Positions 46,240 to 51,345 of a stretch of 63,208 nucleotides of DNA are shown here, piece after piece. Source of the stretch: a virus. The translations under genes were made by a program, and so were the position numbers. The notes below the pieces were generated by a model that made no database searches, had not been told where the DNA came from, and saw only the letters and a program-made list of their open reading frames with translations. Positions within the stretch are counted from its first letter, which is position 1. Each line of letters starts with the position of its first letter. The stretch is taken from IMG/VR virus record IMGVR_UViG_3300016457_001358, positions 1 to 63,208 of that record; one strand, given 5' to 3'.

Positions 46240-46320
46240 TCATCAGAATATATATATTCCATCGCACAATTGATGTATACCATTCTTCCATATATATAGA
46301 GAGAAATTTTTTGGCGATGC
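46240..46320. promoter_or_regulatory. conserved ~85-nt promoter/operator region, copy 1 (upstream of PCNA)
   Basis: cagaatatatatattccatcgcacaattgatgtataccattcttccatatatatagagagaa..ttggcgat; ~85% identical to 51266..51345. Confidence 0.5.
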
Positions 46321-46376
46321 GAAGTAGCGCAAACGGGTCATTTATGCTGAAGCGCTTATTTCGAGAGGCGAATAAA

Positions 46377-47096
46377 ATGTATGTAAAAATTGAAAATTTC
46401 AAGGGTTTTTTGGATGACTTGAGAGCAATCAGTAAGATAGTCGACGAAGCGCGAATTAGGGCGGATCCCGACGGCTTGAAGATAAAAGAGGTTGACAACG
46501 CAAACATGTGCGTCGTTGACTACTTTTATCCCAGAACCAACTGCATCGAATACGAAAGCGATGACAGAGTTGCCGGTATAAACCTTGAAAATCTCAATAA
46601 ATTGCTTAAATTGGCTAAAAAGAACGACATAATTGAAATAAAAACTGAGAACGACAGTATGATACTGACATTGAGCAATGACAGCACCGTTAAAGGGAGG
46701 AATTTTACATTTTCCTTGATTGAAGTGGAAAATAAATTGCCAGGCGATTTGGATTTCAAAACCGAAGTATCAATGCGCACGGAAGCACTTAAAACGGTGG
46801 TTGAAGAGGCGGAAACCATCAGCGATGCCATTATATTCTCTGTTATCAACGGGGTTTTCAAGGTAAAAACCGAGAATGCCACAACCAAATACAGCACGGA
46901 AATCGATGCCGAAAGCAAAGGAGCGAACGCCAATAGCAAATACCGGATAAACTATTTGAAGCGGTTTTTGATCAACAAAAAGGATGTTGAAGAGGTTAAA
47001 TTGGAGTTCAATACGGACTATCCGCTGAGAATGACGTTTAGCAGGCGGGACAAATCGGTGCTGAAATATTTATTGGCACCGGTAATTGATGGGTGA
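46377..47096 (+). CDS. pcn: PCNA sliding clamp
   Basis: ISKIVDEARIRADPDGLKIKEVDNANMCVV, VAGINLENLNKLLKLAKKND and C-terminal YLLAPV match archaeal PCNA blocks. Confidence 0.85.
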   Translation: MYVKIENFKGFLDDLRAISKIVDEARIRADPDGLKIKEVDNANMCVVDYFYPRTNCIEYESDDRVAGINLENLNKLLKLAKKNDIIEIKTENDSMILTLSNDSTVKGRNFTFSLIEVENKLPGDLDFKTEVSMRTEALKTVVEEAETISDAIIFSVINGVFKVKTENATTKYSTEIDAESKGANANSKYRINYLKRFLINKKDVEEVKLEFNTDYPLRMTFSRRDKSVLKYLLAPVIDG

Positions 47097-47102
47097 GAAA
47101 CT

Positions 47103-47471
47103 ATGGGATACTATACGCAAATATATGTAAATCTGAAGGTAAAGAAGCAGAAAATAGAGGAATTTAAGAGCAAAATCGAGGAACTGAAGGAGAAGGTCAG
47201 AAACGGAACTCTGCCAGATGGCAATTGGTTCTGGTGGTATGAGGACATCAGCGTGGCGGAGGACGGCAGTATAGAATTTACTGACTATACCAGAAAGTGG
47301 TATGAGGAAGAAAGATTTTACAACTTCATAAAGGATTATGTGGAACAGGGTTATATTGAAGGATACGGCGAAGAATTTGGAGATATATGGAGAGTTGTTT
47401 TTGACGGCAAAGGCCACTTCAAGTGGCAGGAAGCGGTATTCCAAGATGTAAAAGGGTTGGTGGTTCAATGA
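47103..47471 (+). CDS. hypothetical protein
   Basis: 122 aa acidic Trp-rich ORF. Confidence 0.4.
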   Translation: MGYYTQIYVNLKVKKQKIEEFKSKIEELKEKVRNGTLPDGNWFWWYEDISVAEDGSIEFTDYTRKWYEEERFYNFIKDYVEQGYIEGYGEEFGDIWRVVFDGKGHFKWQEAVFQDVKGLVVQ

Positions 47472-47587
47472 TGTGGGGTTTGTTGAGTGAAGATGAATTC
47501 GCCGAAGTGATGGATGCGTTGAACAAGGTTGGAATAGAAATAACAAACAAACAATATGAAGAATTGAAGGAAATTTTGGCAGTTTGA
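47468..47587 (+). CDS. hypothetical small protein
   Basis: 39 aa hand-delimited ORF. Confidence 0.25.
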   Translation: MMWGLLSEDEFAEVMDALNKVGIEITNKQYEELKEILAV

Positions 47588-47606
47588 ATGATGAGGTGAA
47601 TATAAG

Positions 47607-47753
47607 ATGAACTGGGACAAAGTGAGCGATTGGGATATGGAAAACGGCGAAGTCAGGTTTTTTGACGACGAAGGCAAATTGATAAATACCGCTTGGCTTG
47701 ACGACATAATAGACAGTTACATAGAACATATGAAAGAATTGGATAGGCGATGA
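47607..47753 (+). CDS. hypothetical small protein
   Basis: 48 aa hand-delimited ORF. Confidence 0.25.
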   Translation: MNWDKVSDWDMENGEVRFFDDEGKLINTAWLDDIIDSYIEHMKELDRR

Positions 47754-47755
47754 AA

Positions 47756-47881
47756 ATGTCATACTTTAGTTGCGATTGCGGTTGCGATGACTGGAAGTTA
47801 AAAGAGGACGGTAACAAACTGATTGTGGTGTGTAAGAATTGTGGAGAAGTATTTGACGAAAATTTGTTTGTTTATAAGTGA
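47756..47881 (+). CDS. zinc-ribbon protein
   Basis: CDCGC...CKNCG. Confidence 0.3.
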   Translation: MSYFSCDCGCDDWKLKEDGNKLIVVCKNCGEVFDENLFVYK

Positions 47882-47960
47882 TGTATATACAATAAAAACG
47901 AAACTAATCTAAAGAAGAATCACGGCTTTGTCGGTTGCGATGTGCCGACAGGTGGTAAAA

Positions 47961-48182
47961 ATGGTGGAAAATTTAGATGTATTGTTGGGCATGTTGGAAA
48001 AACTGAAATACAATATTGAGGAAGCAATTGACGAGGTAATAAATGAAGAATTGGATAAAATAACAAATTATGACATACAAGTACAGCTGAATTCTGTAAG
48101 ACACAAACTCGTAAGCAAACTGAAAGACATTGAAACTATGAAAGAAATAGAGGAATTTTTAATGGAGAGACCTGTTTTGTGA
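47961..48182 (+). CDS. hypothetical protein
   Basis: ATG preceded by aggtggtaaaa in frame 47928..48182. Confidence 0.35.
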   Translation: MVENLDVLLGMLEKLKYNIEEAIDEVINEELDKITNYDIQVQLNSVRHKLVSKLKDIETMKEIEEFLMERPVL

Positions 48183-48237
48183 ATGTTTTTTTGTTGTTTT
48201 ATTAAATTGATTCAGATGAAATTGGGGTGGTTAGGAG

Positions 48238-49435: not shown

Positions 49436-49450
49436 AAACAAGAATGCGAA

Positions 49451-49846
49451 GTGAACCGGGTGAGAGGTATGAAGAAAAGATGGGATAAAGGAAATAAGAT
49501 TTATTGGGTAGTTGTCGACGAGGACGGAGTGGTGGCAGGAATTTTTACAAAGGCGCTAGGAGACGGATACGGAAACGGCTATGGAACGCAGCACATAGTA
49601 GATTTGAGCATAAACAGCAAAAAATATGCAAGCGTTAAAGTAAACTGTTACAACTCCTCATGGGCGTGCAGAGGACATGGAATGAACGATGAGTGGATAG
49701 AAGCAGAAGACAATATTGGAAAAGAAGAAGCGATTGAATTCGTGAATGAAATTAAAAGAGAACTTGAAGATGCAGAAGACGAAACAAAAGATGTAGAGGA
49801 GTTATATGAAAAAATCAAAGAGTTTGTAGAAGAGAATTTGAGGTGA
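49451..49846 (+). CDS. hypothetical protein
   Basis: 131 aa ORF. Confidence 0.4.
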   Translation: MNRVRGMKKRWDKGNKIYWVVVDEDGVVAGIFTKALGDGYGNGYGTQHIVDLSINSKKYASVKVNCYNSSWACRGHGMNDEWIEAEDNIGKEEAIEFVNEIKRELEDAEDETKDVEELYEKIKEFVEENLR

Positions 49847-50253
49847 GAGCGATGGAAGTCGATTTCAGCTTGAATTTTCCTGAAATAAGAACAGGCTGGT
49901 ATACCGCTGAGTTCAGCAACCCTTCAGAAGTCAAGTATAGCATCGGTGAAATCGAAAGAATCCAGCAGTTGTTTACCGATGCTGAATTTCTCAAGAACGC
50001 CATTCAGTATTCACTTGCCCCGAGATATGACAGGAACAAAATCAAAAATATTATCAATACGTTCCTTATTATCAGTAACCTGACAAAGACGCCTATTAAA
50101 TCGGCGTGTCTCAAGTTGCTGCTCCAGTGGTATTTCGGATATGTTAGTAATCGCTATAGGTCAAGAATTAACATTGATGAAGTGCTGGTCTTCGACCTGA
50201 CAGGCGAAGACGCAAAGGTCTACACAAAACTTTCATCAATGGCTGATCAGTAA
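49843..50253 (+). CDS. hypothetical protein
   Basis: 136 aa ORF, start overlaps previous stop. Confidence 0.4.
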   Translation: MRAMEVDFSLNFPEIRTGWYTAEFSNPSEVKYSIGEIERIQQLFTDAEFLKNAIQYSLAPRYDRNKIKNIINTFLIISNLTKTPIKSACLKLLLQWYFGYVSNRYRSRINIDEVLVFDLTGEDAKVYTKLSSMADQ

Positions 50254-50288
50254 CTTCGAGAGCCTTTCGATGACGAGCGTCAAATCAG

Positions 50289-50591
50289 GTGAGGAAGATG
50301 GGAAAAAATCTTGAAAGATTTATAGAAATGTTGCTCAATACGCAACGCAATTGGAGAGAAACGGCTTTAACTGACAGTATTGGAAACCAAACCATAGATA
50401 CATGCTACGCCCCCGACACTCAAAAATGGGAGACGGGAATTGAAAGAGATGGTAAATGGATTATCGTTGAGCAATATGGAGATGAAGAAGAAGCCAGAAA
50501 GGGACATAATAAATGGGTCAAAAAGATCAAGCATAGCCCCAAAATGCCGCTCAAAGAATGCCAAACGGCCGAAGAGTGGTTTTTTGGTTAG
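50289..50591 (+). CDS. hypothetical protein
   Basis: 100 aa ORF. Confidence 0.4.
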   Translation: MRKMGKNLERFIEMLLNTQRNWRETALTDSIGNQTIDTCYAPDTQKWETGIERDGKWIIVEQYGDEEEARKGHNKWVKKIKHSPKMPLKECQTAEEWFFG

Positions 50592-50834
50592 ATGGGTGTT
50601 TTTATGAGTTACAGCGTATGGATAGTTATTAAAAAATGCAAAAATAATGAATATAAGAACATTTTGGCGGAGAAAATAGCGGAATTTGAGAGCGAAAGGA
50701 TGGCGTTGAATTACGCAAAAAAGGCAATCAATTCAAAGAACCAGACGGAGGACAAATGGCTTAGCGTGGAGCAAGTCACGGAATTGCTGGAAAACACATT
50801 GCTCGAACGCGCATTTGATCTGAAAGCGAATTAA
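50592..50834 (+). CDS. hypothetical protein
   Basis: 80 aa ORF. Confidence 0.35.
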   Translation: MGVFMSYSVWIVIKKCKNNEYKNILAEKIAEFESERMALNYAKKAINSKNQTEDKWLSVEQVTELLENTLLERAFDLKAN

Positions 50835-50845
50835 AGGTCGATGCT

Positions 50846-51046
50846 ATGGGTCAAGCAGACGTTTTGAAGATAGTGAAAAAGCATCCGGACAAGTGGTTTA
50901 GCGTGAGCGCGTTGGCAAACGCGCTCGGCGTTTCGCCGGCCAGGATCAAGATATGGGTCACCAAACTTTACAGGCATTGGGACCTGATCGAGGTCAGGCG
51001 GGACAGAGCGGTTCCAGAAACATTCGTAAAATACAAGCAAAAATGA
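50846..51046 (+). CDS. winged-helix DNA-binding protein
   Basis: MGQADVLKIVKKHPDKWFSVSALANALGVSPARIK; paralogue of 5465..5683. Confidence 0.45.
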   Translation: MGQADVLKIVKKHPDKWFSVSALANALGVSPARIKIWVTKLYRHWDLIEVRRDRAVPETFVKYKQK

Positions 51047-51052
51047 TGCGGT

Positions 51053-51241
51053 ATGGTTGGAGAATTTTTGAAAGTCAGGTGCAAAGCGTGCAAAAACGAG
51101 CAAATAATCTTTGGGAGAGCCACTTCGGTGGTCAGATGCCTCGTTTGCGGAAACATTCTGGCGGTCCCGACGGGAGGAAAATGCAAAATTATTTCCGCCA
51201 GGCTGAAAAAGGTTATTCCGAACGATGATGATGCTTCTTGA
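51053..51241 (+). CDS. ribosomal protein S27e (eS27) homologue
   Basis: [42 protein letters not shown] matches the eS27 C4 zinc-finger signature. Confidence 0.7.
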
Positions 51242-51265
51242 TTGTAAATCAGATACATTTATCTA

Positions 51266-51345
51266 ACAGAATATATATGTTTCATCAAACAATTGGTGTA
51301 TACCATTCTTCTATATATAATGTAGAGAATTTGGCGATATGCTAT
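51266..51345. promoter_or_regulatory. conserved promoter/operator region, copy 2 (upstream of wHTH and P-loop genes)
   Basis: cagaatatatatgtttcatcaaacaattggtgtataccattcttctatatataatgtagagaatttggcgat. Confidence 0.5.

Follow-up and report, generated by a model that had tools for sequence, protein, structure and literature searches.

Three intergenic promoter-like cassettes form a lineage-specific repeat family in a tailed virus with archaeal-type genes

The DNA analysed here, referred to throughout as the window, is the full 63,208 nucleotides of the IMG/VR virus record IMGVR_UViG_3300016457_001358, and our subject is an intergenic sequence, termed the cassette, that it carries in three copies named P37, P46 and P51, each situated before a block of non-structural genes (Table 1). 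P46 heads the PCNA gene, the first recognisable gene behind it, and about 17 small open reading frames (ORFs), the last of which encodes a homolog of ribosomal protein S27e and is also the last gene before P51. P51 in turn heads the gene of a small winged helix-turn-helix (wHTH) protein, an AAA+ ATPase resembling ORC and RuvB, RNase HII and further genes, and P37 heads the first rightward genes, beside a divergent AT-rich control region. The original prediction of a duplicated promoter region in front of replication-related genes was right about the genes, with PCNA behind one cassette and the wHTH protein, the ATPase and RNase HII behind another.

Table 1 Cassettes, their elements and annotated genes of the window
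Feature	Coordinates	Strand	Evidence and remarks
Cassette P37 (third copy)	37061..37146	+	blastn E 1.4e-4; profile E 1.8e-12
P37 elements	37070-37081; 37091-37100; 37101-37104; 37113-37122	+	box 1-like; AATTGATGTA; block TGCT; box 2
First gene after P37	37147..37350	+	67 aa, without family match; conserved in L041 (601-804)
Cassette P46 (copy 1)	46226..46318	+	nhmmer E 8.5e-20
P46 elements	46245-46258; 46268-46277; 46278-46281; 46290-46298; 46310-46318	+	RGAA + (TA)5 box 1; invariant AATTGATGTA; lineage block TACC; (TA)4 box 2; TTTGGCGAT
PCNA sliding clamp	46377..47096	+	Pfam PCNA_N 1.3e-10; NCBIfam sliding clamp 3e-40
Ribosomal protein S27e homolog	51053..51241	+	Pfam 1.3e-18; NCBIfam 77.2 bits (equivalog cut-off 70)
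Cassette P51 (copy 2)	51248..51343	+	nhmmer E 7e-18; ends at wHTH ATG
P51 elements	51268-51281; 51291-51300; 51301-51304; 51312-51321; 51330-51338	+	box 1; AATTGGTGTA; TACC; box 2; TTTGGCGAT
wHTH protein, AspA/AF_1382/MarR-like	51344..51631	+	95 aa; HTH_45 6.9e-5
AAA+ ATPase with C-terminal winged helix, ORC/Cdc6- and RuvB-like fold	51656..52543	+	AlphaFold2 model, Foldseek
RNase HII	52576..53301	+	Pfam RNase_HII 1.8e-14; gene call on identical contig L007, 10921-11646
tRNA-Met (CAT)	54491-54564	+	ARAGORN; Rfam 55 bits
ParB-N-like gene	~63061 to 936		crosses the circular junction

The two copies singled out in that prediction, P46 and P51, are indeed alike, over coordinates slightly wider than had been claimed. 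A gapped blastn alignment of 46226-46318 with 51248-51338 gives 75/95 identities (79%) with 6 gap columns (E 2.4e-15), and the repeat finder returns an ungapped core of 63 nt (46234-46296 and 51257-51319) with 84% identity. The upstream genes stop at 46222 and 51241; from 4-7 nt past these stop codons the two sequences are alike as far as TTTGGCGAT, which in P51 lies 5 nt 5' of the wHTH start codon. With up to 3 mismatches permitted, the 23-mer ACAATTGRTGTATACCATTCTTC matches solely at the 46-kb and 51-kb cassettes and not once in 100 dinucleotide-preserving shuffles; a chance or low-complexity origin of the match is ruled out by the shuffles together with the E-values. The TATA-like elements described earlier are present as two (TA)n tracts per copy, at 46248-46257 and 46290-98 in P46 and at 51271-78 and 51312-21 in P51.

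The copy number, on the other hand, is three and not two. P37, a more diverged copy, matches copy 1 at 37070-37129 with 72% identity over 60 nt, and is located 5' of the first plus-strand gene in the AT-rich region where the coding strand switches. All three copies are intergenic, on the plus strand and co-oriented with the downstream genes, with one copy per intergenic gap. An nhmmer profile built from all copies yields three matches per genome, in the window and in the related contig L041, and no others below E 0.4; since this profile included P37 itself, the profile E-value of P37 is the score of a profile member. The claim that the copies run into start codons holds for P51, which ends at the wHTH ATG, but not for P46, which ends 58 nt before the PCNA start. 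The latter is backed by a Shine-Dalgarno (SD) motif, GAGAGG, at 46364-46369, by the Pfam and NCBIfam alignments and by the aligned PCNA start of L041. An in-frame ATG at 46317 was considered as the PCNA start and set aside as an unsupported extension, given the family alignments and the L041 start.

Relatives were found through the wHTH protein: contigs L041-L045, whose DNA is 80-90% identical to the window, encode its ortholog P0008 (84% identical). A profile made from the first two window copies only matched each of these contigs twice (E ~1e-11), directly 5' of the wHTH gene and in the spacer 3' of PCNA. In L041 the ortholog of P37 has been preserved far better than P37 itself, having a 31-nt exact match to the L041 wHTH copy, and this 31-mer occurs three times in L041 at 0-2 mismatches, where none is expected. 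P37 and the wHTH copy keep their positions in L041-L045. The remaining copy changes position, as it precedes PCNA in the window and follows it in L041, L042 and L043: P46 sits within an insertion of ~310 nt that is absent from L041, and the L041 copy behind PCNA sits within a 112-nt spacer that is absent from the window. The window-versus-L041 alignments show neither a terminal inverted repeat (TIR) nor a target-site duplication (TSD) at the two insertion junctions, and none is seen at the cassette ends, although no dedicated search was made, and a miniature inverted-repeat transposable element or other insertion element was rejected because neither feature is seen at the junctions. Other differences among these contigs are an internal deletion of ~350 nt in the PCNA gene of L042 (2047-2390, corresponding to 46367-47081 of the window), from which viral PCNA appears dispensable, and two extra genes between the wHTH and AAA+ ATPase genes in L041 and L042.

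Beyond these contigs, no more carriers came up when IMG/VR and the metagenome collection were scanned for the motif. All matches of the metagenome pattern scan (25/25) were judged to be chance, and close relatives sought in IMG/VR via PCNA, the ATPase or the motif gave none that was real. The distant relatives L001-L006, found via the ATPase, have neither the cassette motif nor a wHTH gene at that position; they contain repeated intergenic elements of their own. Contigs nearly identical to the window (>99.8%) gave no information on constraint.

Within each genome the copies have evolved in concert. Over 53 aligned columns, P46 and P51 of the window share 46 (87%) and the L041 copies a and b share 50 (94%), while the orthologous wHTH copies, P51 and L041 b, share 41 (77%), which is below both within-genome values. 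Five diagnostic columns are genome-specific and none is locus-specific. There is also a 4-nt lineage block that reads TACC in P46 and P51, TGCT in the P37 of the window and GGGT in all three L041 copies. Across the six a/b-type copies, as distinguished from the P37 copies, 38 of the 60 core columns are invariant and substitutions are confined to the same few columns, and the flank directly 5' of the first TA tract is variable among copies. P46 shares with P51 both this upstream flank and the TTTGGCGAT end, so it looks as if the whole spacer between S27e and the wHTH gene had been copied. The cassette thus behaves as a discrete unit, of which three copies are kept and homogenised within a genome, and which can be gained or lost at new intergenic sites.

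The order of elements is the same throughout. From 5' to 3', a variable flank is followed by RGAA and a first tract of (TA)4-5 (box 1), TTYCATC, three or four free positions, the invariant AATTGRTGTA, the lineage block, ATTCTT, a second tract of (TA)4-5 (box 2), GAGAGAA and, up to the ATG, a short sequence that varies and includes an SD-like G(G)YGA(T/G). There is no insertion or deletion between box 1 and the core in any of the six a/b-type copies, and RGAA stands in front of box 1 in every one of them, with A-rich sequence in its place in the P37 copies. In front of box 2, in either orientation, the sequence is a pyrimidine-rich ATTCTTCY. Relative to the genuine start codons, box 1 is 67-70 nt upstream; box 2 is 25-30.5 nt upstream of all 7 of them, even though the sequence between differs. 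No conserved RNA structure is seen in the cassette (consensus fold of -1.9 kcal/mol, no covarying pairs), and the Rfam scan found only the tRNA.

An archaeal core promoter has an A/T-rich TATA box of ~8 bp centred ~26-27 nt upstream of the transcription start, immediately preceded on the coding strand by the purine-rich B recognition element (BRE). Either TA tract could be this TATA box. We give box 1 a little better than an even chance, in an arrangement that is slightly favoured: box 1 and its BRE-like RGAA flank would direct the start to the end of the invariant AATTGRTGTA, giving a conserved leader of ~41-44 nt, the SD-like motif and the ATG. This agrees with the BRE-like flank, with the position of the predicted start exactly where the invariant block ends, and with the SD-like motif 5' of every ATG, including that behind P37, which has no co-directional upstream gene from which read-through transcripts could come. 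Box 2 as the TATA box is a serious but lesser prospect; the mRNAs would then be nearly leaderless, and all the sequence upstream would be a regulator-binding region. In favour of box 2 are its fixed spacing of 25-30 nt to the ATG, the leaderless appearance of other first genes (36891-, 27221- and 53326+) and, in P46, a T6 run 3' of box 2 that would be an obstacle to transcripts started at box 1. The use of both boxes, or some other arrangement, has a small chance. Other likely promoters of this genome are likewise without a clear BRE.

A bacterial-type promoter was also considered, in which AATTGATG would be the -35 element, separated by a 17-nt spacer from box 2 as the -10 element (a perfect TATAAT in P51), with an SD motif behind. 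The geometry fits by eye, but sigma-70-like sites are not enriched (24 found versus 16.9 ± 4.5 in shuffles) and the gene content is archaeal (PCNA, S27e, a PolD-like protein, an AspA-like protein), and for these reasons the sigma-70 interpretation was rejected.

The wHTH gene lies directly behind the positionally conserved copy in 6/6 contig types (the window and L041-L045). Searched against the PDB with a profile that included remote homologs, the protein matches AF_1382 (1.7e-16) and AspA (3e-11), then MarR proteins, TubR and SSV1 F-93. Its AlphaFold2 model (predicted local distance difference test score, pLDDT, of 90) has AspA (4rs8) as the top Foldseek match, with template-modelling (TM) scores of 0.75/0.85, a root mean square deviation of 1.1 Å and 28% identity, and also matches MepR and other MarR proteins. 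AspA forms a dimer that binds DNA site-specifically, with a 23-bp site upstream of its own gene (PMC5120986). Between the window protein and its 84%-identical ortholog there are 15 differences, two in the recognition helix (R49G and L50M) and four in the wing (V58D, M59R, A60V and A67V), with helix H2 and the first half of H3 unchanged. These substitutions in the likely DNA-contact elements are compatible with the changed DNA block, in what is a single contrast. With its constant place behind a cassette and its sequence and structural likeness to such binders, the AspA/MarR-like wHTH protein is the best candidate for a regulator that would bind the cassettes.

We consider it likely that the cassettes are a lineage-specific family of three promoter (plus leader) units of ~85-95 nt that are co-regulated, with the wHTH protein as the best candidate for the shared factor. 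Initiation by the host TBP, TFB and RNA polymerase would take place at either the first or the second (TA)4-5 tract. Because all copies share the invariant blocks, three gene blocks would switch together via one factor. This factor may be the wHTH protein encoded behind P51, which would then also control its own synthesis. On this interpretation the cassettes start blocks of early and replication genes.

Several observations weigh against this interpretation. No operator-like dyad is conserved in the cassettes beyond the self-complementary TA tracts and the pair GAAT...ATTC, which is of only 4 bp with 36 bp between its halves, and a CATC-N8-GATG dyad is broken in P51 and P37. The cassettes also contain no palindrome like the 23-bp site of AspA, which argues against a simple AspA- or MarR-like operator. 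The apparent co-variation of cassette and wHTH protein comes from a single contrast, because only two lineages carry the element, and the likeness of copies within a genome could reflect independent recent duplications or gene conversion without any shared factor. The ambiguity between the two TA tracts as the TATA box is real, with sequence evidence both ways. Finally, no oligo-T terminators were found 5' of the cassettes, so read-through is likely and the cassettes may be internal promoters. What agrees with the original prediction is a putative shared promoter region that fills whole intergenic gaps as a co-oriented, conserved unit with TATA-like boxes, though it may not head isolated transcription units; the regulatory role that had been proposed for the wHTH protein draws on its constant place behind a fixed copy, its AspA-like fold and its differences from the ortholog in the recognition helix and wing, and lacks the conserved operator-like dyad.

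Among the other explanations, the most probable is that the copies serve as substrates for recombination, or as regulatory cassettes that move, with the shuffling of gene modules as their main evolutionary effect, like the promoter early stem-loop (PeSL) elements of T4-type phages (PMC2839356, PMC4122927). It can coexist with a promoter role, and we regard it as unlikely but worth keeping in mind. The relocation of the PCNA-adjacent copy between lineages, the indels that map at cassettes, the 5-kb block between P46 and P51 made up mostly of small ORFans, the internal PCNA deletion of L042 and the homogenisation of copies within a genome all fit it. Nevertheless, the fold and the scan for terminator-like sites found no stem-loop or terminator half at the cassettes, nine near-identical contigs of the same virus include no deletion or hybrid-junction variants, and the junction alignments and cassette ends, in which no dedicated search was made, show neither a TIR nor a TSD. 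Another possibility, that the S27e-wHTH spacer was recently duplicated and the likeness is a neutral remnant without function of its own, would explain why P46 resembles the whole P51 intergenic region, including the upstream flank and TTTGGCGAT, and no longer abuts a start codon. However, both lineages, though 10-20% different elsewhere, have kept three copies, in which invariant blocks are interrupted by a few free columns, and P37, an old paralog, keeps the same core and lineage block, which makes this the least probable of the alternatives.

Two further explanations assign the cassettes a role in DNA maintenance. They might mainly be nucleation sites for the AspA-like protein, acting as centromere-like or chromatin-organising elements in partition or compaction, perhaps with a ParB-like protein, with transcription control secondary or absent. 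AspA, the closest solved relative of the wHTH protein, is the centromere-binding protein of pNOB8 and spreads along DNA from the site upstream of its own gene (PMC5120986), a ParB-N-like gene lies over the circular junction, and the element occurs at several sites per genome. We judge this improbable, as a centromere would not need the strict start-codon register and the co-orientation with genes, the wHTH fold is equally close to MarR-type repressors, the gene is not adjacent to the ParB-like gene, there is no 23-bp-type palindrome, and no ParA-type ATPase was found among the window proteins scanned, which do not cover the whole genome. The other explanation, that the cassettes are origins or initiator-binding iterons for the ORC/RuvB-like AAA+ protein with the (TA)n tracts as unwinding elements, we hold to be very improbable. 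P51 just 5' of the wHTH and ORC-like genes recalls the classic layout of an origin next to its initiator, P37 is at the cumulative GC-skew minimum beside a region of 24% GC, and (TA)n melts easily. Yet the copies are direct repeats 5-9 kb apart, one per gap, and not clustered inverted repeats around an unwinding element; the GC skew has no inflection at 46 or 51 kb, and its switch at 37 kb coincides with the switch of gene strand. The two genes between the wHTH and ATPase genes in the relatives, and the same orientation and fixed distance to the start codon in all copies, also speak against origins.

The promoter interpretation has some consequences. The three cassettes are a concrete prediction of an early and replication regulon with a candidate regulator, and the paired variants of the window and L041 are natural material for comparing binding specificity. 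The relocation beside PCNA indicates that promoter units can be copied and lost as modules, which bears on how gene blocks are rewired in archaeal viruses. To our knowledge, transcription control in tailed archaeal viruses has hardly been studied beyond the haloviruses.

A more speculative extension, which we think doubtful, is that the cassette and the AspA-like protein are a co-evolving specificity pair, with the cassette as a portable 'address label'. The evidence for it would be the lineage-specific block of 4-5 bp (TACC/TGCT versus GGGT). It occupies the same position in each of the cassettes, which would be the predicted start site if box 1 is the TATA box, and its change is paired with wHTH substitutions of which 6/15 fall in the recognition helix and wing. 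If this were true, the copying of a cassette into another intergenic gap, as has happened on the two sides of PCNA, would recruit genes into the virus regulon, and the pair would be akin to the immunity specificities of lambdoid phages.

As for the genome as a whole, positions 1-91 are identical to 63118-63208, an exact 91-nt repeat from which we take the genome to be complete, 63,117 bp long and circular or terminally redundant. A long structural arm on the minus strand encodes the large terminase and an HK97-type capsid protein, and the plus strand from ~37 kb carries PCNA, S27e, the wHTH protein, the P-loop ATPase, RNase HII and many small ORFs. By its genes, the virus is a tailed one with archaeal-type content (PCNA, S27e, a PolD-small-subunit-like protein and HTH_45). 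The PolD likeness resides in a protein encoded at 4158-5066 (+), which has an N-terminal HTH-like segment and matches the archaeal PolD small subunit in NCBIfam with E 2.8e-18, far below the family cut-off. The AAA+ ATPase has no Pfam family match; its AlphaFold2 model (pLDDT 85) is closest to RuvB and ORC subunits in Foldseek (E 1e-6 to 1e-5). No known phage is similar to the window by megablast, and the terminase has a match only at ~22%. The best genomic matches of S27e (58-77%) are from DPANN archaea, namely Woesearchaeota and Nanoarchaeota, including an Auka/Pescadero metagenome-assembled genome, which hints that the host may be of DPANN type. The same virus is present in several samples, which we guess to belong to BioProject PRJNA713414. 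The papers found under that number all concern the Auka vent field in the Pescadero Basin, and on this guess, helped by the sample names, the virus would stem from the sediment of a deep-sea vent there.

Close to P37, the region 35150-36900 has ~1 kb without a convincing ORF, then a gene of 24% GC at 36175-36891 (minus strand, leaderless-looking), and contains the cumulative GC-skew minimum, and is therefore a possible origin or control region. Elsewhere, a segmental duplication of ~0.9 kb with small genes (9228-10187 and 55650-56491, 83-94% identity) is found on both plus-strand arms, and copies of a 99-nt repeat (93% identical) at 11638-12408 (-) lie inside a gene of 528 aa, 11608-13194, that may encode a repetitive fibre or adhesin.

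Other repeated elements with promoter-like features are also present in the window. TAATAATTAATATATAAGTTCGATAATCC is duplicated at 21188-21216 and 27234-27262 (-), with 29/29 identical positions, 5' of two structural-arm genes; one of these, 27221-, has no SD motif and a TATA-like motif ~29 nt before the ATG. A second upstream element, GACNGAAAACTATTTAAAT...AACAATAWATAWAT, with a textbook BRE and TATA box, occurs at 6042-6083 and 60963-61004 (+) and in part at 53298-53325. The third set is at 37356-38073, where three tandem units of ~310 nt each contain a T-rich repeated promoter (TTTTATATT...TTTTAAAAGCG; 37382/37702/38017) before a tiny gene, and a conserved hairpin, AGAGTGGTTTAAGGATCGGACC..CCACTCTCT, is located behind two of the units (37921-37955 and 38269-38303). 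The presence of these further repeated cassettes (21188/27234, 6042/60963 and the triplet at 37.4-38.1 kb) fits a class of co-regulated promoters.

Several known systems resemble the cassettes in part. The PeSL elements are likewise repeated intergenic regulatory cassettes in variable regions, with indels and rearrangements at the cassettes (PMC2839356, PMC4122927), but they belong to bacterial sigma-70 systems and have a stem-loop terminator, of which none was found here. The AspA system of pNOB8 (PMC5120986; PDB 4rs8, 5k5q) provides the closest solved relative of the wHTH protein (28% identity, TM 0.75-0.85). There, a 23-bp palindrome precedes the gene, which is followed by parB and parA, whereas here there is no such palindrome, no parA is found among the proteins scanned, and the next gene encodes the ORC/RuvB-like AAA+ ATPase.

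In SIRV2 and other archaeal viruses, a virus-specific sequence around the BRE and TATA box is common to early genes, and the gene of the wHTH protein Aca8, which is always directly behind one such copy, has been proposed to encode the repressor of the set (PMC11065993). The present cassettes are similar in being a sequence of 30-100 bp around a candidate BRE/TATA motif that is common to several genes per genome, that is more alike within than between genomes, and that has a small wHTH gene directly behind one copy. However, the former are crenarchaeal rod- or spindle-shaped viruses with the motif before single small anti-defence genes, in contrast to a tailed virus with cassettes before long gene blocks that include replication genes, and the wHTH protein described here is AspA/MarR-like.

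The intergenic repeats of HF2 and other Haloferacalesvirus members, which are of 58 bp (class I) and 29 bp (class II), are experimentally proven promoters: all are active in transcription, which begins within the conserved block, and from some copies very long transcripts arise that cover replication genes among others (PMC8707807). As here, these are multi-copy, strictly intergenic and co-oriented repeats of a tailed archaeal virus, with an AT-rich TATA motif between conserved blocks that reach past the start site, here a predicted one, and with a sequence that is kept among related viruses. The differences are that the sequences have no obvious resemblance (compared only by eye) and the host lineage is different, that HF2 has nine copies and the window three, with two TA tracts 41 bp apart, that the repeat positions are reported to be strongly conserved there whereas one copy was relocated between close relatives here, and that activity and start sites were measured in HF2 whereas the present cassettes are known from their sequence. 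The arrangement is already known from HF2 and SIRV2-type viruses, and the cassettes described here are a tidy and unsurprising case of it.

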